From: a virus
Length of the DNA: 41,748 nucleotides
Strand: one strand, 5' to 3'
IMG/VR virus record: IMGVR_UViG_3300009537_000054
Coordinates: 1-41,748 of that record
Both the position numbers and the translations under genes were made by a program. How positions within the stretch are numbered: the first letter of the stretch is position 1; the number at the start of each line of letters is the position of its first letter. Positions 1 to 41,748 of this stretch are shown here, in pieces. The notes beneath the pieces are model-generated. The model saw nothing but the letters and a program-made list of their open reading frames with translations. It ran no database searches and had not been told where the DNA came from.

Positions 1-70
1 CACTGCCTTAACCCGGAATAGCTCCGCATCGCCCCTCAGAAGCCACACAGGGCCGTTTGTGTCCGTACCC
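1..70. repeat. Direct terminal repeat, copy 1 (circular assembly overlap or terminal redundancy)
   Basis: nt 1..70 are identical (70/70) to nt 41679..41748, read directly. Confidence 0.97.
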
Positions 71-15462: not shown

Positions 15463-15980
15463 AAATTGTGAGACCCGATGCTGATCTCTGCCTGTAACAG
15501 CAGGAAGTCGCTCGCCGCCAATGTGGCGTTGACCGAATTGGTCAGGTTGTAGGCGATACCCTGTCCGCTGCTCGCATGATTCACACAGGCCGCTGAAGCC
15601 AATGCCACGCCGGTCAGGCCGTCGGTATTCCCTGCCCACGTCATGGCCAGAATCACCGTCATTTTCGACGTGGCGAGTGTTGCCGGTGCCTTGCGACTGA
15701 CTTCTCCGAATTGCAGGCCGGTGTTCCCCAAGGAGAAGGCGGTCGATACCGTGCCGATGGCCAGATACGCTATCCCGCTGGTGGTGACCCCGATGGCCCT
15801 TGATGCGAGCGCGTTCAGGCCGGTGGCGGTGACAATGTTCTTCGGGATGATGGTCTCGTCGATGGACCCATCCGCGCGCGTGATGCGCTTGCGCCACTTC
15901 ACGTTGAGCGGGATGCGGTCGTGTAGCGCGTCCTGGAATTCTGCCAGGAGGCGCGCTTCCTCAGTAATATTTGGATTCAT
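15459..15980 (-). CDS. Structural-module protein, possibly fibre/collar related
   Basis: 173 aa. The pattern IVTATGLNALASRAIG...IAYLAIGT...GNTGLQFGEVSRK is reminiscent of tail-collar fibre N-domains. This is a weak call. Confidence 0.35.
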   Translation of the reverse strand: MNPNITEEARLLAEFQDALHDRIPLNVKWRKRITRADGSIDETIIPKNIVTATGLNALASRAIGVTTSGIAYLAIGTVSTAFSLGNTGLQFGEVSRKAPATLATSKMTVILAMTWAGNTDGLTGVALASAACVNHASSGQGIAYNLTNSVNATLAASDFLLLQAEISIGSHNL

Positions 15981-18900
15981 AGTTTTGGGTCCTCTCTGTC
16001 ATGAGTTTCAGGAACAACTTTTCTGCGTGTTCGCGTGAGTAAAATCTGGCTGTGATGGGCGGCTGTCTCTCCGGGTGCGCCCCACCATTCAGCTTGCTGG
16101 CGTCCATCGTGAAACCGAAGTCGAAGCCCTCCCCGAGTATCTCCACGAGGGTTGAGTAGAAGCTCATATTGTCGGAATCGGTGATCATCCGCAGCTGGCC
16201 GGCGTCGAGCAGTTCACCCCAGATTGCTATCCCTGCCTTGGCGCGCTCGACCATGGCCTCGGTGACGTGCCCCCCGTTGGCCTCGGCTTCCCATCGGCAC
16301 ATCTGGGACAGGTCTCTTAACCACAGGAACTTCCCGAGGACGCGATCCGGGTACTTCTCCCGGTCCCTAACAAGCAGGCCGATGTTCCGCTCGAACCGTT
16401 TCCGGCGGACCTCTTCGGTGCTGTATCCGTAATGAGCGATGGTCACATCCCCCATGATGGTCGCGTGTCCGACGCCTTTGTTGATCTCGAGCTCAGGGTG
16501 TTCATGGACTACCCCGAAGAATTTGATGCCCTTACCATTACGGTAGAACCTTGATGGCAGGTCGGTTTTCATGATGCCAGCCGGCTCAACGCTGTAGTGA
16601 AGCTGCTTGATGGCATAAGCGTTGAACATATTCTCGCGGAGGTACTTCCTGACGTTCTCCGGGTGGAATAGCACCTCGTCGGCGTCGATCCAGAGTATCC
16701 AGTCGGCTTTAGCCTTGGCGGTACACTGATTCCTGGCCTCGTCGAATCCGATCTCCAAGGGTGATTTGATGTCGAACAGGAGGTCTTCCTTTGGAGAGAA
16801 CCCTTTGACGTACTTCGCCGCAATGGCCCGGGTCTCGTCCTTGGTGGTCTCGTCGACCGCGACAATGATCTCGCTGGCGATGTTCTTCACGGATTCCAGG
16901 CATCTGCCCAAGCTGTGCTCGGCGTCCTTGGCGATGATACAGACCGCGAGGGTTTGGCTCGGTGCCAGATATTTGAACTTTCGTGAATAGTCGATGCGCC
17001 CGCTTGGCTGGGTCGGCTTACCGAAAACCGCGATATAACTGCCGAGGGCGTCACCGTTCCGGTCTGTGCCTCCGGTGGCCAGGTTCACGTTAAACCCTGT
17101 GTGCATACCGAACAGGTCATGCAGGTCTTGTCTTTCAAGGTGATGGACGTGCGCCCTCCACGGCCAGTGTTCCCGGTAGCCTATCGCCTCCCAAGGGCCA
17201 AGTGGTGTGGTGGTGATAAACTTCCCGCCTTCCTTGAGGTACTTCCCGAGAGCATCGATCATCTCCCACGGTGCTTCGACGTGCTCAAGAACCTCGGCGA
17301 CGATGATGGCATCGAAGCTTTCTAGTGCAGGCGCTTCGTCGTCCCCGGCCACTTTAATAATGCCGACCTCAACGCTTCCGGTGATAAAAGTAGCGTTCCG
17401 TGTTCCGTCACTGTCAGCCCACTTTCGGGCTGTGGCGATATTGCTGGCGGCGATGTCGATTCCGATGAACTTGAGGTCTGGAAAGGCTTTCGCCAGATTG
17501 TTCGTATAGTGACCATGAGCGCACCCATAATCACAAACGACGCTACCAGCAGGGAGACTGCCAAGGTGACCGGCCACAGTAGCAAAACGGTTATTGTGCG
17601 TGCAATCTTCCGGCCCGTACTCAACTCCGCGCTGTTTCTCATAGTCGTAGTACCTCTCATAGTGTTCCTTCCAGGCGCGGTCGCGCGCGAAGGCGTAGCA
17701 CTCCTGCATCTCTTTCGCCGCGGTATTGTCCCCCGTGTGGTCGGTTGGGTGTTCTGCAGCGTACTTCTCGGCGGCGTAGTAGTCGCTCGTATGAATGAGG
17801 CTCTTTAAGACGGTCTCCGGGTTCTTCGTGCGTTCGGCGAACAGTTCTTCAATGTGCTTCTCGAAGCCCTCGGCGGCGATTGACCAGGCGAGCTTTACAC
17901 CAGCCCCGCGCTGTGCTGCGCGCATAACGTCAGGGCTAAGTAGCATGGGCCGCTCATCGCTATACTCCTCCGAAAATAAATCTACTACGGTTCCAACAAA
18001 AGACGCTTCATCGGCAACGCCGTTCTTTAGATTAATCAAATGCGAGCCGCTAAATTGGCACGTCTCAGGCAACGCACCAACGTGCGATGCGATGAACGGC
18101 AGGCCGGCTGCCATCGCTTCCATCGCCGTGATGCAGTTGTGGATAACGACTCCGCCAGCGATGAAATTATGCGTGCGTTCGACCTCCATATCGTACACAT
18201 CCTCATGTCCGCATGGCTCAACACTGACGACCTTGTGATTGAAGGCCGCACCCTTGGCCGCGAGGTTCGAGCGCTTCTTGGCAGCACGACTGTCGATCCA
18301 AGCCTGCCGCTCCTCTGGAGGCATGGCGTTGACCTTTTCCCACAGCTTGTCGCCGGCTTTACTTAGTGTCTGAATCCGCTCGGCACGGAAATCCGCATCG
18401 CCTTCCCATTTCTTGCGCCAGCCATTCACGTGTGCGCGCGCGGCATGCGGCGTCTTCACTAATCCACGGAACGTCTTCTTCGCGTGATCCGAAGGCGACA
18501 GCACTTGCAGGTTGTCCGGCATGTTGTTCAGCGGGTTCCCGTCGATATGATCGACGTGGTGGCCCTTCGGAATATCGCCATGGACGTATTCGGCGATGAC
18601 CCGATGCTCATGTGGCCAGCGGCCCGAACCGGTAGACACGGTAATCTGGGCATGCTTCTTCAGAGCCACCGCAGATTCGCCAGGCTGTAAGTCTTTCAAC
18701 TCGACCCAGCCGCGCTTGTACGTCAGCACCTTGTGGTCCGGAGTGGCACGCAGGCATGTCCCATCGTCCCAAAGGACCTTCCAGATTTCGCGATTCTTGC
18801 CTGTTTTTGCTACCCATTTCACCTGTGACAATATGAACTTCCCGTTTTCCTCGTCGTATGACCAGACAGGGAAACCGCTCTTGCCGACCAGTTCACTGAT

Positions 18901-19791
18901 CGGCACGCCGCGCGGGTACTTCGTATAATCACGCGGCATGTCGATGAGCGTATCGCCGACGCAACAGGAAACTTCTTCGAATTCAGAGGGGTACACAAGG
19001 GCATCACACTGCCTCATGGTGTCCGCCAACTGTTGCTTGGTCAGGCTACCCATGTTGGTGCAGTTCGGTAACTCCTCGATGCGCGAGTACAGATAGGCGT
19101 ACATATCCGCGAGGTGCGGCGGGTTGTTGTCGTAGTTACAGACATAGAGCCGGAAGCGCTTATCGATCTCCCAGAGCCTTTCCATGATCCCACCCGGGCG
19201 AACGTGGTGCGCCAATCCGCGCTCCGGTCGTGAGGTGTAGAGCAGGGCGATCTCGTCCTTAACTTTCGGCAGCTTGAATCGCGGTTTGCCTTGGAATAGG
19301 TTCAGGTCCACGCCGTTTGTCACGGTCTTAACGATCTCCGGAGCCAGTCCGTAGACCTCGCAGAGCTGTTTCTTGTGCCATTCACTGACACAGAATACCG
19401 CGTCGATATTCCAGAGGCCGGCGGCGATGGAGGGCTTCTGTCGGTGAAGGGCGAGGTCGTGCATCCAGGCGATATTCAGCTTGGCCTGGAACCTGTGGAC
19501 AAATGCGCCCGGCTGGCGCTGCATGATCAAGACGTCAGTCGGTGTGTTGCTGGCGTAGAAGTGAAACCGTTCCCCGAGGGGTGCCCGCTCGTTCAGGGGT
19601 CCTGCCCAGATGTATTTCACCCCGTCGAAGTTCCCCTCGTTCGGATCGTTGGTGAATATCGTTACCTTGTGTCCCCTGGCCGCGAGCTCCTTGGCGATGT
19701 AATAGGCCGCTGACTCGGATCCTCCGAGGGATTTGGTCTTGAGGGTGTCGCCGTTGAACGGCATGCCGCCACAATGAATGGTGATCAGCAT
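15961..19791 (-). CDS. GT4 glycosyltransferase (split by intein) / class I SAM methyltransferase / GT2 glycosyltransferase fusion protein
   Basis: 1276 aa. GT4 spans aa 1-275 plus 553-~650 (E-x7-E restored after intein removal, EAMAAGLPFIAS). MTase spans aa ~735-925 (VVCDYGCAHG, FDAIIVAEVLEHV; nt ~17017..17589). GT2 spans aa ~946-1135 (LAVCIIAKDAEHSL..., WILWIDADEV; nt ~16387..16956). Confidence 0.8.
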   Translation of the reverse strand: MLITIHCGGMPFNGDTLKTKSLGGSESAAYYIAKELAARGHKVTIFTNDPNEGNFDGVKYIWAGPLNERAPLGERFHFYASNTPTDVLIMQRQPGAFVHRFQAKLNIAWMHDLALHRQKPSIAAGLWNIDAVFCVSEWHKKQLCEVYGLAPEIVKTVTNGVDLNLFQGKPRFKLPKVKDEIALLYTSRPERGLAHHVRPGGIMERLWEIDKRFRLYVCNYDNNPPHLADMYAYLYSRIEELPNCTNMGSLTKQQLADTMRQCDALVYPSEFEEVSCCVGDTLIDMPRDYTKYPRGVPISELVGKSGFPVWSYDEENGKFILSQVKWVAKTGKNREIWKVLWDDGTCLRATPDHKVLTYKRGWVELKDLQPGESAVALKKHAQITVSTGSGRWPHEHRVIAEYVHGDIPKGHHVDHIDGNPLNNMPDNLQVLSPSDHAKKTFRGLVKTPHAARAHVNGWRKKWEGDADFRAERIQTLSKAGDKLWEKVNAMPPEERQAWIDSRAAKKRSNLAAKGAAFNHKVVSVEPCGHEDVYDMEVERTHNFIAGGVVIHNCITAMEAMAAGLPFIASHVGALPETCQFSGSHLINLKNGVADEASFVGTVVDLFSEEYSDERPMLLSPDVMRAAQRGAGVKLAWSIAAEGFEKHIEELFAERTKNPETVLKSLIHTSDYYAAEKYAAEHPTDHTGDNTAAKEMQECYAFARDRAWKEHYERYYDYEKQRGVEYGPEDCTHNNRFATVAGHLGSLPAGSVVCDYGCAHGHYTNNLAKAFPDLKFIGIDIAASNIATARKWADSDGTRNATFITGSVEVGIIKVAGDDEAPALESFDAIIVAEVLEHVEAPWEMIDALGKYLKEGGKFITTTPLGPWEAIGYREHWPWRAHVHHLERQDLHDLFGMHTGFNVNLATGGTDRNGDALGSYIAVFGKPTQPSGRIDYSRKFKYLAPSQTLAVCIIAKDAEHSLGRCLESVKNIASEIIVAVDETTKDETRAIAAKYVKGFSPKEDLLFDIKSPLEIGFDEARNQCTAKAKADWILWIDADEVLFHPENVRKYLRENMFNAYAIKQLHYSVEPAGIMKTDLPSRFYRNGKGIKFFGVVHEHPELEINKGVGHATIMGDVTIAHYGYSTEEVRRKRFERNIGLLVRDREKYPDRVLGKFLWLRDLSQMCRWEAEANGGHVTEAMVERAKAGIAIWGELLDAGQLRMITDSDNMSFYSTLVEILGEGFDFGFTMDASKLNGGAHPERQPPITARFYSREHAEKLFLKLMTERTQNYESKYY
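18136..18966 (-). mobile_element. Intein with HNH homing-endonuclease domain (277 aa, residues 276-552 of the host ORF)
   Basis: Begins CCVGDTLI, has the central motif HHVDHIDGNPLNNMPDNLQVLSPSDH, and ends GGVVIHN followed by Cys+1 (CITAMEAM). The codon positions were verified on the sequence. Confidence 0.8.
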
Positions 19792-27124: not shown

Positions 27125-27796
27125 TTACGCCGGAACCTCATGGTGGCAACTCGGACAAAGCGAGTAAGGCACGCTATCCATCTGACTGATGTTCTCATCC
27201 ACGGTCCCGAGCTTTCCGGTTCCGCCTCCGTCGAAGCAACAGGTCAGAACGTCTCCATTGCTCCCGATCATCGCCCATCCGTTCTGCAGCCACGGGCAGA
27301 CTTCTCTGACGGGTGTGCTCACTTCCCATTTAACCTGGCCTGCCCAGTCTACCGCTGAGATACTCGGGTCTGCCGAGATGCCGGCGAGGACTCCATATTT
27401 CTTGAGCAGGTTAACGGTTGGCCCGGCTTTCTCGGGTCGATGCAGTGATACCCAGACTCGCATCTGTGCGTAACGCATCGCCAAGGCGTGATCCTCTGTT
27501 ACGCCGACGCCGTTTGTTGCGAGGATCAGGTGACGCTTGTTTCCTATGGCTTCCCTCGCCTCAAGGCACCACTCCCCGAATTCAGGATGCATGGTGCTTT
27601 CACCGATCCCGCAGAGGTTGAGTTCCTGGCCTTGGGTGTTGTCTTCACAGAAGCGACTTACCCATCCGATTGCTTTTTCCCAAGTGCCCCGGCTCATGTG
27701 TTCCTTGGTTCTGGCCATTGTCGGGTGGACGCAATATCGGCATCGCAAGTTGCATCGACTGGTCATCTCGATCTGGTGGATGCTCTGGATTTTCAT
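27125..27796 (-). CDS. Radical SAM enzyme with C-terminal Cys-rich (twitch/SPASM-like) region, paralogue 1
   Basis: 223 aa from ATG 27796 (ATGA overlap). CNLRCRYC matches C-x3-C-x2-C. The C-terminus reads C...GWAMIGSNGDVLTCC...LGTV...LCPSCH. Confidence 0.75.
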   Translation of the reverse strand: MKIQSIHQIEMTSRCNLRCRYCVHPTMARTKEHMSRGTWEKAIGWVSRFCEDNTQGQELNLCGIGESTMHPEFGEWCLEAREAIGNKRHLILATNGVGVTEDHALAMRYAQMRVWVSLHRPEKAGPTVNLLKKYGVLAGISADPSISAVDWAGQVKWEVSTPVREVCPWLQNGWAMIGSNGDVLTCCFDGGGTGKLGTVDENISQMDSVPYSLCPSCHHEVPA

Positions 27797-28188
27797 GCAG
27801 TTACATTTACCGTAGCCGAAAAAGGTATTGGATGGCGTTCTGATGCTTTTGCTAGCAGAATCATCCACGCCTCACACCGTGCATCTTCCATCATGTCGTT
27901 CAATAGTTCCCGTCTATATTTTCTATACGGAGGCCATGTGTGCGGGAGGTACCCATCTTTAATTGACTTCGTTATTGCTGCAAGTTTGCCCAAAGGGTGA
28001 TCTTCGTAGAACTTATCTACTCCGAGCATATTCCATTTGAAATACGGTTTACGTTCTTTTCGTAATGATCTCCAGAACAGTTTACGCCTCAAGGCAGGCA
28101 ATGTGTGTAGTAACTTAGCAAGGTCTGCTGCGATAGCTTTGTACACAACCAACGCCTCTGGACTCTGTACGGAGGCCCATTCGCTCAT
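27793..28188 (-). CDS. Hypothetical protein inside the radical-SAM cassette
   Basis: 131 aa from ATG 28188, with ATGA overlaps on both sides. Basic and aromatic-rich, with no motif recognised. Confidence 0.55.
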   Translation of the reverse strand: MSEWASVQSPEALVVYKAIAADLAKLLHTLPALRRKLFWRSLRKERKPYFKWNMLGVDKFYEDHPLGKLAAITKSIKDGYLPHTWPPYRKYRRELLNDMMEDARCEAWMILLAKASERHPIPFSATVNVTA

Positions 28189-28361
28189 GGCGTCACCTTC
28201 ACGCACGATAGAGACGTCTGTGGCGCGCGATCATCGTAGTAGCAAATCACCCCGTACTGATCTTGTGGGTAGTGGTTCAGGTACGGATAACCGTAGTCTG
28301 ATGCTTCTGTTCCGCATCCTAGCAGGGCTATGGTTGCGATTAATGCGAGCGTGGTTTTCAT
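28185..28361 (-). CDS. Small lipoprotein / exported Tyr- and Cys-rich peptide (58 aa)
   Basis: ATG 28361 overlaps the rSAM-2 stop (ATGA). MKTTLALIATIALLGC has a classic L-L-G-C lipobox. The mature 42 aa contain 7 Tyr and 2 further Cys. Confidence 0.6.
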   Translation of the reverse strand: MKTTLALIATIALLGCGTEASDYGYPYLNHYPQDQYGVICYYDDRAPQTSLSCVKVTP

Positions 28362-29008
28362 GTTGGGACCCTCAAGTGGCACTTCGCACAAAGCGGGATC
28401 GGGTTCATCTCTGTCGGTTTGTTCGTATCATTCACGTTTCCTATGGGATAGAGGCCGTGGGCATCCATGCAACAATTAACGATGTCACCGTTCTGCAGGA
28501 CGGTTGCCCAACCCTGTGCTAAATATTGGCAGTCGTGTTCTGGCGCCAAGTTCGCCCATGTGACTTGCCCTGCCCAATCGAAGCCGCTGCTGACGAACTG
28601 GTGATTGACTTGAACCTTAATGCCGAGCTTCAAGCATCTGTCTACCGCCGGCCCCGCGACCTCTGGCCGGTGTGCGCTGACGTAGACTGTCGCGTCTACT
28701 TCCTTGATGGCTTTCAGGGCCTCATCTTTCAAAGCGATGCCGTTGGTAGCCAAGAGTATCCACGTCTCCGGCAGATAGGCCCTGGCGGTTCTGATCATCT
28801 CCGGGAATTCCGGGTGAAGTACCGCTTCGCCCATGCCGGTAAGAGATAGCTCTGGGCCTCCCAGCTGGCGCGTCCATCTGAGTGCGTTCTCGAAGGTCTC
28901 CTGATCCATGTCTTCCTTTGGCCTTTGGAGCTTCGGGTGTGGGCAATAACGGCAGGAAAGATTGCACCGTGATGATATTTCTATCTGATGGACGGTTGTT
29001 ATTCTCAT
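28358..29008 (-). CDS. Radical SAM enzyme with C-terminal Cys-rich (twitch/SPASM-like) region, paralogue 2
   Basis: 216 aa. It has CNLSCRYC and is colinear with paralogue 1 throughout (HQIE(M/I)(T/S)SRCNL..., HPEF, LATNG, HRPE.AGP, DWAGQV.W, NGD(V/I)..CC, LC..CH). Confidence 0.75.
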   Translation of the reverse strand: MRITTVHQIEISSRCNLSCRYCPHPKLQRPKEDMDQETFENALRWTRQLGGPELSLTGMGEAVLHPEFPEMIRTARAYLPETWILLATNGIALKDEALKAIKEVDATVYVSAHRPEVAGPAVDRCLKLGIKVQVNHQFVSSGFDWAGQVTWANLAPEHDCQYLAQGWATVLQNGDIVNCCMDAHGLYPIGNVNDTNKPTEMNPIPLCAKCHLRVPT

Positions 29009-33062: not shown

Positions 33063-33214
33063 GGCTTTTCCTCCGCAAACTCAATCAACGCCCGATAGGC
33101 GTCAGCCAGTTCCGGGTTCTGTTCATCAAGCATTTCGGTTTCTTCGCCCTCGTCCATATTGATTTCGTGGGCTTCGATGATTGCTTGTGCGTGCTCTCTC
33201 GTAAATTCACTCAT
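33059..33214 (-). CDS. Small acidic protein (51 aa, absent from the ORF track)
   Basis: MSEFTREHAQAIIEAHEINMDEGEETEMLDEQNPELADAYRALIEFAEEKP. ATGA overlaps at both ends. Confidence 0.5.
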   Translation of the reverse strand: MSEFTREHAQAIIEAHEINMDEGEETEMLDEQNPELADAYRALIEFAEEKP

Positions 33215-34128
33215 GGCTTTGCCTCGTATTGTGCGCGCATCCTGGCGATCTGGTCCTGATTGGTTTGGCTCTTATCCAGTTGGCGTGCGTGGGTGGTGGT
33301 GATTTTTGTCCCTGTTGCCCATTCCGTCCTGAGTTTCTCGGCGTCTGCCAGTAGTATTCCGATGGCGTGGCATTTGGTGATGTAGTAGCTATTCCCGTGT
33401 GTCAGGAAAAAGGCGGCGACTTCCGGCGATTCTTTCCCAAGCCTTTTCACAAGCTGCTTAATCTGGCCGTTCACCTTAGCGTTGCGGATCGGGTCCACCT
33501 TGTAGCGCTTGGCGTAGGCGTCTCGGTAGGCGGCCCAGGTGAGCTGTTCGGTTGTGGCAACTTCTGGTTCCAGCTTGAAGCCTTCCTTGTCTACGTGGTG
33601 GCCGTTCTTGCCCGTCGCAGCTTGCTGCGCGGAAGATGTAGTAGTCTCTGTAGTAGTCTCTGATGTAGTCTCTGTAATAGAAATCAGGCTTTCCCTGATT
33701 TGCAAATCCGTCTTACCCTGATTTGCTAATCCGGCTTTCCCTGATTTGCTTTCAGGCTTTCCCTGATTTGGTCGATCAGGCTTTCCCTGATTTGCTTTGG
33801 CATGGTCCAGCATCATTTCTTCTAATCTTTTCTCCAATACGTTCAACTGTACTTTGAAGAAAACAGTTTTATCTCCTCTGCGCTCATCCCATAGTCCTGA
33901 TTCTCGCAACTTCTTTCTGGCGGTGGCCTGTTGCTCCCACGTCAACCCGATCTCCTGCTCCCAGTCCTCTGCGCTCTTGTAAAACCAGCCATCCGGGTCT
34001 TTCGCTTTGGGTGTCCAGTAAACGGCCTGAGATAGCATCAGGGCGGCGTTTATTGATCCAGTTATTGTGACGTAGCTGCGCTGGAACGCGATGGTTCTGG
34101 ATAGGTCGATCAGTGGGGTCTTGCTCAT
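33211..34128 (-). CDS. Replication initiator (lambda O-like / replisome organiser) carrying the origin
   Basis: 305 aa. The N-terminal region looks like a winged helix. The central low-complexity linker (NQGKP repeats, TETT repeats) is encoded by the iteron array, as in lambda O. Confidence 0.6.
   Translation of the reverse strand: MSKTPLIDLSRTIAFQRSYVTITGSINAALMLSQAVYWTPKAKDPDGWFYKSAEDWEQEIGLTWEQQATARKKLRESGLWDERRGDKTVFFKVQLNVLEKRLEEMMLDHAKANQGKPDRPNQGKPESKSGKAGLANQGKTDLQIRESLISITETTSETTTETTTSSAQQAATGKNGHHVDKEGFKLEPEVATTEQLTWAAYRDAYAKRYKVDPIRNAKVNGQIKQLVKRLGKESPEVAAFFLTHGNSYYITKCHAIGILLADAEKLRTEWATGTKITTTHARQLDKSQTNQDQIARMRAQYEAKP
33639..33674. repeat. Tandem 12-bp repeat x3 (tagtagtctctg) adjacent to the iterons
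   Basis: 33639..33650 and 33651..33662 are identical, and 33663..33674 differs by 1 nt. The repeat encodes the TETT/SETT repeats. Confidence 0.85.
33685..33795. repeat. Iteron array, putative origin of replication (5 x 19 bp, consensus CMGGCTTTCCCTGATTTGC)
   Basis: Copies start at 33685, 33708, 33731, 33753 and 33777 (spacing 22-24 bp). An AT-richer stretch follows at 33800..33880. Confidence 0.75.
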
Positions 34129-34152
34129 GCTTTGCTCCTGTTGTGCCAGGGC

Positions 34153-34181
34153 TTGCGGAGCGGGAGGGAATCACGGATACT
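34153..34181 (+). promoter_or_regulatory. Weak candidate promoter for an antisense RNA (TTGCGG - 17 nt - GATACT)
   Basis: Read on the plus strand in the intergenic region upstream of the initiator gene. It lies ~75 nt upstream of the plus-strand terminator. Confidence 0.2.
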
Positions 34182-34228
34182 TCGTTCCGTAAGTCCCCGC
34201 CCTGCTCCTCAAGCTTCAGGCGGTTCTG

Positions 34229-34257
34229 GCCCCAGGCTTCACGGCTTGGGGCTTTTT
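34229..34257 (+). terminator. Plus-strand rho-independent terminator in a minus-strand-only region
   Basis: GCCCCAGGC - uucacg - GCUUGGGGC (9 bp including one G.U) followed by UUUUU. On the minus strand the hairpin is not followed by a U-run. Confidence 0.6.
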
Positions 34258-34270
34258 ACTTCGGGGTCTT

Positions 34271-35126: not shown

Positions 35127-35353
35127 GGCTTTCCCCTCCATCCTATTTTCAAGTCTCTCAGGTTCGTGAGCGCACTGGTGTAGTCTTGGTATTCGTCCCA
35201 GTTCCCGGCGCAGTTGTAAACGACCCAGACCCCGTCTGTTTTGCCCTCACGGATTTCCTTGATGATCCCGTTCTCCCATTCCTCTTCGGTGTAATGCGCT
35301 GGCTGGTAGCGCACCGGCATCCCTACTTGCAAGGATTTGATGTCGATGATCAT
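35123..35353 (-). CDS. Hypothetical early protein
   Basis: 76 aa with ATGA coupling. Confidence 0.5.
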   Translation of the reverse strand: MIIDIKSLQVGMPVRYQPAHYTEEEWENGIIKEIREGKTDGVWVVYNCAGNWDEYQDYTSALTNLRDLKIGWRGKP

Positions 35354-35754
35354 TTCTTGGCCTCGTTCGCTCTAATCGTTTTTCCACAGAAAACTGAACT
35401 GTTGAAAAACCGCATGTTGATGCCGCTCTTCGGAATAATGAAACACAGTGCGCCAGTTGGAACGGCTGACGTCAACTCAAAGTGTTCGTCCGACCCAAAG
35501 AATACGTGACTTGTTTGTCCTCCACATTCTTTGCATGGCGGCCCGCCAAACGGTGATGCAATATACAAACCTTCTGCGCGCAGATCATCCGGGCCTTCAA
35601 CACCTGTGCCAAGGTAGATTGGCTCTATCTCTTTGCACTTATTGCATGCGTATAAATATTTCGCATGCACCATGTAGTTCCGCCCGGCAACCGCATCCTC
35701 GATGGCGCGAGCATGTTTTTTGCTGCTGACTTCATGACCTTGTTTTGTTTTCAT
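35350..35754 (-). CDS. Hypothetical Cys4 protein
   Basis: 134 aa with CNKC ... CKEC. Confidence 0.5.
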
Positions 35755-35927
35755 GGATTCCTCCCATCGTTTGGTGGTGTGCCTACAATCTCCTCGCGGA
35801 TTATCTTGACGTTATCGGGTGCGGCAATGCCGATGCCTACCTGCCCACGATCAAGCCGGAGTATGGTGATCTTGATATCGTCACCGATCAAAATACTCTG
35901 ATTCATTTTCCTTGTTAGGACCAACAT
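35751..35927 (-). CDS. csrA: CsrA/RsmA-family RNA-binding translational regulator homologue (58 aa, absent from the ORF track)
   Basis: [58 protein letters not shown]. This is colinear with E. coli CsrA [47 protein letters not shown], including the MLxLTR and REEI motifs. GAGAGGAAA RBS; ATGA overlap with the next gene. Confidence 0.8.
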
Positions 35928-35929
35928 AA

Positions 35930-36127
35930 TTATTTCCTCTCTGTGCGTTTCCGCAGATTCAGGAGCTTGGCGATCAGGTCATCAAGCTCATTCGCTTTAA
36001 CCTTGATCCCGACACGGGAGACATCATGCCAATCAGTTGGCTCCCATCCGGTTATAATGAAACCGTTCCTAACACGGATCGCGGTCTGGCCGTAGTCATC
36101 GCCCCACTTTGTGAAGTTGCTTGCCAT
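35930..36127 (-). CDS. Hypothetical early protein
   Basis: 65 aa with an AAGGAG RBS. Confidence 0.5.
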
Positions 36128-36141
36128 GTTGTGCTCCTTGT

Positions 36142-36357
36142 TTATTGTGTGTGAACGGTTACAAGTTTAGTGCCGTCCGGTCGGTCCTCTACATGCCCGC
36201 CGAAGTAAGCCGCGAACTCTCCGCCCCCGTCTGCCAGCTCGATGAGTTCATCTCTCCCCGGCCAGTACCCAGTGAGAAGGGTGGCGTTGTAGGTTGTCCG
36301 GCCACTGAGGATGCGGTCGAGCATGAAGGTGATCTCTGCATCATTGCTGGCTTTCAT
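36142..36357 (-). CDS. Hypothetical early protein
   Basis: Start reset to ATG 36357 (GGAGGG RBS, ATGA overlap). 71 aa. Confidence 0.5.
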   Translation of the reverse strand: MKASNDAEITFMLDRILSGRTTYNATLLTGYWPGRDELIELADGGGEFAAYFGGHVEDRPDGTKLVTVHTQ

Positions 36358-36614: not shown

Positions 36615-36646
36615 GGTGGCTCTCCGTGTCGGTTGGTACTGTAACG

Positions 36647-36675
36647 ATTGAACGACAATTCACGGCAAAGGTCAA
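36647..36675 (-). promoter_or_regulatory. Candidate leftward early promoter (TTGACC - 17 nt - TTCAAT)
   Basis: Read on the minus strand in the 161-nt divergent intergenic region. It is bracketed by an 8-bp inverted repeat TGTAACGA (36640..36647) / TCGTTACA (36677..36684). Confidence 0.35.
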
Positions 36676-36712
36676 GTCGTTACAAATATTTATTTTTACC
36701 CCTATTTTTCCC

Positions 36713-36742
36713 TTGCTTTTATGCCTTTTCTCGGTTTACTAT
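36713..36742 (+). promoter_or_regulatory. Candidate rightward early promoter (TTGCTT - 18 nt - TACTAT)
   Basis: Plus strand, ~34 nt upstream of the erf start codon. The match is weak. Confidence 0.25.
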
Positions 36743-36775
36743 CGTTTCTCTACACACGCACATGAGGAGCATTTA

Positions 36776-41603: not shown

Positions 41604-41748
41604 TCAAAACCTGATACTGCCACCGATACCGACAAATCCGGCTCCTGATGTGTCGTATGTCCCAGTCAGCCCAAAGGCCACTGCCTTAACCCGGAATAGC
41701 TCCGCATCGCCCCTCAGAAGCCACACAGGGCCGTTTGTGTCCGTACCC
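41604..41748 (-). CDS. 3' part of the junction-spanning gene (ends ...GAGFVGIGGSIRF, stop TGA at 41604..41606)
   Basis: The minus-strand frame is contiguous with 1..456 through the repeat. The C-terminus resembles an outer-membrane beta-signal (G-x-x-I-x-F). Confidence 0.65.
   Translation of the reverse strand, partial: GTDTNGPVWLLRGDAELFRVKAVAFGLTGTYDTSGAGFVGIGGSIRF
41679..41748. repeat. Direct terminal repeat, copy 2
   Basis: Identical to nt 1..70. The unique genome length is therefore 41,678 bp. Confidence 0.97.

Follow-up and report, generated by a model that had tools for sequence, protein, structure and literature searches.

Does a small reading frame on the minus strand of this phage genome encode a working copy of the bacterial regulator CsrA and, if so, are the mRNAs that it acts upon those of the host or those of the phage? 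A sequence-only reading had proposed that the frame encodes a CsrA/RsmA homologue in an early operon, that this protein either rewires CsrA-controlled translation in the host or controls GGAGG-rich leaders of the phage itself, and that its divergent, short C-terminus could make it a dominant-negative or sRNA-insensitive variant. Motility, carbon flow and biofilm are under the control of CsrA, as is CRISPR-Cas expression in Serratia (PMC8450108). We analysed the whole stretch of DNA, hereafter the window, which is 41,748 bp long with a GC content of 54.8%.

A complete phage genome with csrA in its early arm

The window carries a 70-bp exact direct terminal repeat and is therefore the complete genome, of ~41.7 kb, of a tailed phage. 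That the gene is phage-encoded is borne out by this repeat and by the surrounding gene content, which includes a terminase, a portal fused to a head-morphogenesis domain, a protease, a tape measure and a minor tail protein, Erf and YqaJ exonuclease genes on the plus arm, an O-like replication initiator (Table 1), NinG/Rap, a MazG-like pyrophosphatase and a DNA methyltransferase. No tRNAs were found in the window. Among the ~45 ORFs scanned we found neither an integrase nor a CI- or Cro-type repressor, so that lysogenic conversion is unsupported; the same ~45 ORFs contain no FliW or flagellar families, and the gene does not fall in the FliW-partnered type of CsrA. A possible link between the large glycosyltransferase ORF of the phage and the glycosyltransferases found beside csrA in flagellar loci was considered and judged to be generic GT2 similarity.

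The genome is organised in two divergent arms separated by an AT-rich region of 160 nt (36615-36775) in which the GC content goes down to 0.42. We identified by eye a putative promoter for the minus-strand early operon in this region, flanked by the two arms of a perfect 8-nt inverted repeat (36640-36647 / 36677-36684). A consensus promoter scan did not report this candidate, because its -10 hexamer has no A at position 2. Counted from the divergent control region, csrA comes fourth in the minus arm and is embedded in a tightly packed string of co-directional small ORFs, often overlapping by ATGA, with six or more neighbours. Since the O-like initiator gene lies downstream in the same direction, the operon can be assigned to the early/replication arm, and the earlier placing of csrA in an early operon agrees with this architecture, from which its position would be early and lambdoid-like. 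PADLOC gave no defence-system match for csrA or five neighbouring genes.

Table 1. Features of the csrA locus and of the minus-strand early operon
Feature	Position	Strand	Details
csrA-like CDS	35751..35927	(-)	58 aa; CsrA core = residues 1-47; proline-rich tail = residues 48-58
Shine-Dalgarno (SD) GAGAGGAAA	35933..35941	(-)	read from sequence
ATGA stop/start overlap of csrA and next gene	35751..35754	(-)	csrA TGA 35751-35753, downstream ATG 35752-35754
134-aa ORF downstream of csrA	35350..35754	(-)	CxxC...CxxC motifs
65-aa ORF upstream of csrA, same operon	35930..36127	(-)	TAA stop 2 nt before csrA ATG
O-like replication initiator gene, downstream of csrA, same direction	33211..34128	(-)	PHROG 9773 'replication initiation O-like', 5.9e-33
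Putative sigma-70-type promoter, minus-strand early operon	36647..36675	(-)	TTGACC, 17-nt spacer, TTCAAT; by eye

The reading frame and its start codon

The 58-codon frame translates exactly as had been claimed, and both of the translation signals described for it are present. The GAGG core of the Shine-Dalgarno sequence GAGAGGAAA ends 8 nt before the ATG at 35927, and the stop codon of csrA overlaps the start codon of the next gene, which suggests translational coupling of the two. The csrA leader contains two GGAs, one within the Shine-Dalgarno sequence (-10) and a second 15 nt further upstream (-25). The 134-aa ORF that follows has no match in Pfam, PHROG or PADLOC, and no family can be assigned to it.

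The public (JGI) call of csrA on the same contig (P0001) is 51 aa long and starts at Met8. We found that 11 of 11 other proteins returned together with P0001 start with MLVLTR and that the Pfam CsrA match begins at residue 1, while Met8 is preceded by an AGGA at a distance of just 2-3 nt and by no properly spaced Shine-Dalgarno sequence. For these reasons the 58-aa form is the credible csrA product, and the automated choice of Met8 wrongly strips the RNA-binding strand beta1 from it. An exact-protein look-up of the 58-aa product returned no record, since it is the 51-aa Met8 form that was called publicly.

The product belongs to the CsrA/RsmA family

A search with Pfam PF02599 matched residues 1-48 of the product to model positions 1-48 of 53 with 75.8 bits, against a gathering cut-off of 27 (E = 2.5e-21). 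The NCBIfam csrA models are the best matches but remain just under their cut-offs for the canonical equivalog (70.0 vs 70.1 for TIGR00202 and 66.5 vs 73 for NF002469); the narrow miss is explained by the missing helix region, as the match extends over positions 1-48 of a 69-position model. The product also matches the PHROG 9500 'CsrA-like regulator' profile (6.4e-16), and its location in a phage genome fits this group. With phmmer, nine distinct CsrA/Rsm sequences of several species were retrieved from the PDB at E <= 3e-7, the best being RsmE (1.2e-10), and identity to bacterial CsrA/Rsm proteins is 45-62% (21/47 for E. coli CsrA, 29/47 for RsmE). The phmmer alignments to RsmE and RsmA from the PDB, together with a sequence alignment, uphold the proposed colinearity with CsrA, including the N-terminal MLxLTR strand and the R44 of the REEI segment.

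For the fold, we built an AlphaFold2 (AF2) monomer model of the product from a 12-sequence alignment. The pLDDT is 79.3 overall, 81-90 across residues 1-40 and 50 for residues 51-58. When this model was compared with the PDB using Foldseek, the best 15 matches were all CsrA/RsmA/RsmE chains, mostly at 1.5-1.7 A over 37-45 residues with a probability of 0.99-1.0. DSSP recognised strands 2-4 alone, which is what a model of the monomer should show, since beta1 and beta5 pair across subunits.

The residues that matter for RNA binding are also present. According to Mercante 2006 as relayed in PMC6692469, the strongest RNA-binding defects of E. coli CsrA map to R44, V42, L2, I47, V40, L4, R6 and R7; at these eight positions the phage protein has R44, I42, L2, I47, V40, L4, R6 and K7. 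The alignment thus indicates that the RNA-binding residues of beta1 (L2, L4, R6, K7) and beta5 (V40, I42, R44, I47) are kept or conservatively replaced. For C. jejuni CsrA, 19 functionally sensitive positions have been described (PMC6692469); if the numbering is taken to be the same, 15 of the 19 are identical in the phage protein and 3 are conservative, and the remaining one, position 31, has K in C. jejuni and R in most homologues but G in the phage protein. The CsrA dimer is obligate and domain-swapped (PMC5864733), and in the alignment the dimer-core residues I12, I14, I18, I20, I32 and I34 are conserved.

Judged by profile and predicted fold, the product is clearly a member of the CsrA/RsmA family, as the sequence-only reading had proposed. 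With bacterial CsrA/RsmA/RsmE (PF02599; PDB 2jpp, 1y00, 1vpz, 7yr6) it has in common colinear residues 1-47, the same predicted beta core and the key residues.

A helix-less tail that defines a sub-branch

The phage protein departs from these bacterial proteins in two respects. First, the C-terminal alpha-helix (E45-Y61 in E. coli), with which the beta1-5/alpha1 topology is complete, was sought in the AF2 model and none is predicted; in its place, I47 is followed by a tail of 11 residues with three prolines. Second, R31, K38 and H43 are replaced by G, D and I, respectively.

The divergent, short C-terminus noted earlier is therefore real, with no helix and a proline tail, but it is not special to this phage, as the (V/I)GTP(P) tail, the non-His43 state and Gly31 all recur elsewhere. 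An exhaustive homologue search returned 16,004 cluster representatives at E <= 1e-3, and we counted these traits over the 86 single-domain proteins within the best 150 of them. Among these nearest representatives, a proline occurs in the six residues that follow position 47 in 32/86, His43 is found in only 13/86 and Gly31 in 3/86; P0046 and P0143 likewise have Gly31. The tail of P0026, encoded on a 92-kb phage-like contig, reads REELVGTPPND, of which the heptapeptide VGTPPND is identical to the tail of the phage protein, and close variants of it are found in P0059, P0101 and P0054. CsrAs from Planctomycetota MAGs (Schlesneria, Pirellulales) also have non-His43 residues and non-helical tails.

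Members of this (V/I)GTP(P)-tail sub-branch are 57-62% identical to the phage protein (phmmer, tblastn); most of them have longer low-complexity tails than the phage protein has, and many are chromosomal. Our literature search found no experimental characterisation of any member. Collectively, the sequence comparisons indicate that the helix-less tail and the non-His43 state are a lineage trait which includes cellular genes and is no innovation of this phage, and that the missing helix defines a sub-branch and is compatible with CsrA family membership.

csrA is an accessory gene in a distant phage lineage

We found ten metagenomic loci with an O-like initiator at 36-62% identity, one of which (L064) also has TerL and one more gene in common with the window. 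CsrA was found in none of these ten loci (0/10) in the DNA fetched for them. Conversely, four phage-like contigs that bear csrA (P0004, P0005, P0006 and P0026) have no gene in common with the window other than csrA. The segment around csrA (~35,340-36,150) has a GC content of 46-51% vs 54.8% for the genome. A conserved pairing of csrA with the downstream 134-aa ORF was considered and rejected, as the only relative of this ORF, in L005, has a different gene upstream. Because csrA is missing from the O-like relatives, because nothing else is common to the csrA contigs, and because of the low GC and the occurrence of the partner gene elsewhere without csrA, these comparisons indicate that csrA is a mobile accessory gene which appears to have settled repeatedly in phage early regions.

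Among the csrA-bearing contigs, P0005 carries a GpA terminase, and in P0006 the csrA gene lies opposite a CI/LexA-type repressor gene. Two other close homologues, P0007 and P0010, are encoded on chromosomes, next to fliW in flagellar gene clusters.

The phage itself is remote from its cultured counterparts. No near-identical DNA was found in cultured phages, and a search with TerL against 185,579 species genomes gave no relative; among cultured phages, identity reaches no more than 52% for TerL (Nitratiruptor phages) and 27% for the capsid protein. On these sequence comparisons the phage lineage is far from any cultured phage. A genome scan with csrA returned genes of Planctomycetota and Firmicutes at no more than 60% identity, none of them in a related prophage, and the cellular CsrAs found reach about 60-67% identity at most. 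A hint at a Planctomycetota host comes only from CsrA similarity and GC content, and no host is assigned from it.

Comparison with other mobile copies of csrA

Phage csrA genes have already been catalogued and partly characterised (PMC7366521, PMC7546807, PMC11879866), and the gene described here is a divergent further example. Sobrero and Valverde 2020 (PMC7366521) list csrA in 30 of 2517 phage genomes. Our tblastn search with the csrA product detected homologues in 79 phage records, none of them reaching 60% identity. Two of the closest parallels in gene order are small single-domain early-region CsrAs of the PHROG 9500 type, namely the 57-aa CsrA of Vibrio phage 219E41.2, which is likewise encoded by the fourth gene after a divergent region, and the 61-aa 'carbon storage regulator' of Providencia phage PSTCR8lys, whose gene adjoins cI. 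Both are 43-49% identical to the protein studied here, and their phages have no other genes in common with ours.

Bci, an RsmM-type protein from the group of Pseudomonas phages AUS531phi / phi297, is encoded ahead of nuclease and RecT genes in AUS531phi (PMC7546807, PMC7366521), and its deletion alters infection efficiency as well as motility, biofilm, pyocyanin and the expression of quorum-sensing genes (PMC7546807). Bci has 123 aa with a structured C-terminal extension of ~70 residues vs 58 aa here, at ~48% core identity, and the protein of the window is not of the Bci/RsmM type. The Bci phage is temperate with an integrase, whereas none was found among the ~45 ORFs scanned here. The 219E41.2, PSTCR8lys and Bci proteins all keep the HR(E/K/S)EIY start of the helix, which the protein of the window lacks; in the first two it reads HR(E/K)EIY..RI, the canonical form.

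Two further systems provide functional precedent. Knock-down of PTXU04_00028, the csrA homologue of coliphage PTXU04, leads to smaller plaques (PMC11879866), which shows directly that phage genes of this kind aid lytic growth; this gene belongs to another phage and host and is likened to the present one by role, not by sequence. RsmQ of plasmid pQBR103 globally rewires host translation (PMC9928087); it is likewise a CsrA homologue on a mobile element but is plasmid-borne and has the canonical Rsm architecture.

Host or phage mRNAs as possible targets

We consider it probable that this tailed phage has, in its early operon, an accessory gene for a functional minimal RNA-binding protein of the CsrA family. 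The product would be made early in infection from the tightly packed, translationally coupled string of genes and would form the usual domain-swapped homodimer, of which the AF2 prediction represents the monomer only. By binding GGA motifs within or close to Shine-Dalgarno sequences, this homodimer would alter how a group of mRNAs are translated or how stable they are. The main targets may be host mRNAs of the type found in the Csr regulon, namely those for motility/flagellin, carbon flow, biofilm and possibly defence systems, and the host cell would be shifted to a state favouring phage growth, with some action on phage mRNAs possible as well. That the host is the main target is suggested by precedent, which consists of Bci, the PTXU04 homologue, RsmQ and the control of CRISPR-Cas expression by the host Rsm pathway in Serratia (PMC8450108). 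The affinity of the protein may be lower than usual, since Gly31 is rare and the K31A substitution lowers the activity of C. jejuni CsrA (PMC6692469).

An alternative is that the product mainly regulates the mRNAs of the phage itself, as a temporal switch or autoregulator at GGA sites that overlap Shine-Dalgarno sequences in its own leader, in the hairpin around the Shine-Dalgarno sequence of the downstream gene or in late genes. E. coli CsrA autoregulates its own translation. In the window, GGA is found at the Shine-Dalgarno position in 52 of the 72 predicted leaders, and 38/72 have at least two GGAs within -45..+10; the csrA leader itself has its GGAs at -25 and -10. At the start of the downstream gene, AUGGG-AGGAA-UCCAU can fold as a weak hairpin with the GGA of the Shine-Dalgarno sequence in a 5-nt loop and the AUG in the stem.

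We compared the counts of GGA, of hairpins with GGA in the loop and of the CANGGANG consensus with those of dinucleotide shuffles, and found no enrichment of any of the three. GGA counts are 855 vs 839 +/- 20 in shuffles on the minus arm and 128 vs 116 +/- 8 on the plus arm, and GGA-in-loop hairpins number 156 vs 157 +/- 11 and 27 vs 21 +/- 4, respectively. The CANGGANG consensus occurs 36 times in the whole window vs 27.9 +/- 5.9 in shuffles, with 12/100 shuffles reaching 36. The GGA found at the Shine-Dalgarno position of the 52 leaders is the Shine-Dalgarno sequence itself. The AUGGG-AGGAA-UCCAU hairpin (-2.8 kcal/mol, z = 0.14) is not significant, and across the candidate leader hairpins of csrA and of the start of the next gene we found no extra stability relative to shuffles (z = 0.14 to -1.4).

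The claim that the protein controls GGAGG-rich leaders of the phage thus finds no backing here: self-regulation of phage leaders is possible and is unsupported by motif statistics. Furthermore, csrA is missing from the relatives of the replication module, and is therefore no integral part of the phage's own circuit. We accordingly regard a role mainly on the phage's own mRNAs as rather unlikely.

The product might instead act indirectly, either through dominant-negative heterodimers with host CsrA, as had been suggested, or by soaking up host sponge sRNAs and thereby freeing host CsrA. The obligate domain-swapped dimer of CsrA and the conserved dimer core of the phage protein speak for the former, and the binding of host sRNAs by RsmQ (PMC9928087) for the latter. 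However, no cellular CsrA found exceeds about 60-67% identity to the phage protein, and its RNA-binding residues are intact, which would be needless for a pure poison subunit, so that we find indirect action of either kind very improbable. Slimmer still are the chances that csrA is a decaying or non-functional passenger, through loss of the helix together with R31G, K38D and H43I or through a 51-aa Met8 product devoid of beta1: the absence of a predicted helix, the rarity of Gly31, the reduced activity of C. jejuni K31A, the scores just below the NCBIfam equivalog cut-offs and the public Met8 call are what such a reading can draw on, but the ORF is intact with a good Shine-Dalgarno sequence and tight coupling, all eight top RNA-binding positions are retained, the tail motif and the non-His43 state are kept in many intact homologues, P0026 with its VGTPPND included, proline-interrupted tails are a common feature of the nearest representatives and Met8 has no properly spaced Shine-Dalgarno sequence.

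Sponge sRNAs and protein antagonists

The proposal that the phage protein is an sRNA-insensitive variant is unlikely on mechanistic grounds: the beta1/beta5 surface that takes up mRNAs also takes up sponge sRNAs, and this surface is conserved here. No Csr/Rsm sponge sRNA was found in the whole window with Rfam (E <= 1), so that, in comparison with bacterial Csr/Rsm systems, the phage-borne csrA has no sponge sRNA detected nearby; three sub-threshold Rfam matches in the window belong to unrelated families.

Protein antagonists are another matter. CesT no longer binds CsrA(1-44) or the R31A/K38A/H43A/R44A mutant (PMC5864733), and binding of FliW requires N55 in the helix region (bioRxiv 10.1101/2020.07.02.184341). 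The phage protein has no predicted helix, and three of the four CesT-relevant basic residues are gone (G31, D38, I43). From its sequence and model, escape from FliW and CesT is a reasonable inference, and is a better-grounded version of the idea of sRNA insensitivity: the protein would likely be open to titration by GGA-rich RNAs while escaping protein antagonists. Such an escape is not readable as a phage-specific adaptation, because cellular relatives have the same traits.

Taken further, this would make the product a stripped-down, 'antagonist-proof' CsrA, made early by what is probably a non-integrating phage and locking host translation, for example of flagellin or defence systems, in a repressed state whatever the host checkpoint signals. 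We put this forward as speculation, and think it unlikely.

Implications

The locus opens no new question as such, since 30 of 2517 phage genomes are already listed with csrA and functional evidence exists for Bci and for the PTXU04 homologue. It does hold a lesson for annotation, as the automated choice of a start codon cost the protein its RNA-binding strand beta1. One way for viruses to reprogram the cell is to carry their own copies of its global regulators. What is new here is a CsrA that is both minimal and very divergent, in a phage lineage that is uncultured, and that draws attention to a helix-less, uncharacterised sub-branch within the family. If the 'antagonist-proof' interpretation were true, the sub-branch with the (V/I)GTP(P) tail would form a functional class of its own among CsrAs, common to phages and Planctomycetota-like hosts.

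Genome ends and control elements

The window contig is a complete genome, circular or terminally redundant, because its two ends carry an exact direct repeat (Table). In the AT-rich divergent control region, we found a perfect inverted repeat whose arms enclose the putative promoter of the early operon (TTGACC and TTCAAT, separated by 17 nt), an arrangement that looks operator-like. No repressor gene was identified among the roughly 45 window ORFs scanned.

Furthermore, the 142-nt gap (34129-34270) that separates the 86-aa gene from the O-like replication gene contains, in antisense orientation relative to the early operon, a strong hairpin with a T-run after it. Two Rfam sRNA matches, both sub-threshold, overlap this hairpin. 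The lambda oop RNA occupies the same site, and the hairpin may be an antisense regulatory RNA.

Features of the phage genome and of the P0006 locus
Feature	Position	Strand	Basis or remark
Direct terminal repeat, exact, 70 bp	window 1-70 and 41679-41748		at the two contig ends
1276-aa ORF, among structural genes	window 15961-19791	-	domain matches
Radical-SAM-domain ORF	window 27125-27868	-	domain match
Second, separate radical-SAM-domain ORF	window 28358-29008	-	domain match
Hairpin of 11 pairs (7 G-C), then T-run	window 34228-34263	+	sequence scan
Inverted repeat, 8 nt, TGTAACGA/TCGTTACA	window 36640-36684		flanks putative early promoter on both sides
P0006 csrA homologue and neighbours	L053 7188-8183		first gene of operon

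Radical-SAM and glycosyltransferase ORFs

The two radical-SAM-domain ORFs lie with the terminase on one side and the Nin-like region on the other. In the 1276-aa ORF, a GT4/GT1 glycosyltransferase is interrupted by an intein (Intein_splicing, residues 296-552) in which an HNH endonuclease is nested (396-437), and is followed by a SAM methyltransferase domain at residues 745-902 and, at 950-1085, by a GT2 glycosyltransferase. A phage glycosyltransferase fusion containing an intein is unusual. At seven Firmicute-type flagellar loci (L007, L021, L024, L026, L033, L054 and L055) a GT2 gene adjoins csrA/fliW, and these genes share 24-31% identity with the GT2 part of the ORF, which is probably generic GT2 similarity; we mention it solely because this phage carries both csrA and a GT2-bearing ORF.

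CsrA homologues and the csrA start codon

The homologue search of the protein library also returned many proteins in which the CsrA domain occurs 2-4 times in tandem, in principle single-chain "dimers", and a CsrA-like stretch within two giant proteins of 6781 and 5891 aa (together P0013-P0025, P0016 and P0086). Single-domain CsrAs score below these. In a prophage immunity region on another phage-like contig, the P0006 homologue stands in the "cro position", because it opens an operon divergent from a CI/LexA-type repressor (HTH and Peptidase_S24), with a YdaS-like gene next.

The public gene call for csrA (P0001, 51 aa) starts at Met8 (window 35906-35927, minus strand), and its product lacks the RNA-binding strand beta1. 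The Met8 start is an annotation error, one that would influence any automated functional or structural inference on csrA.
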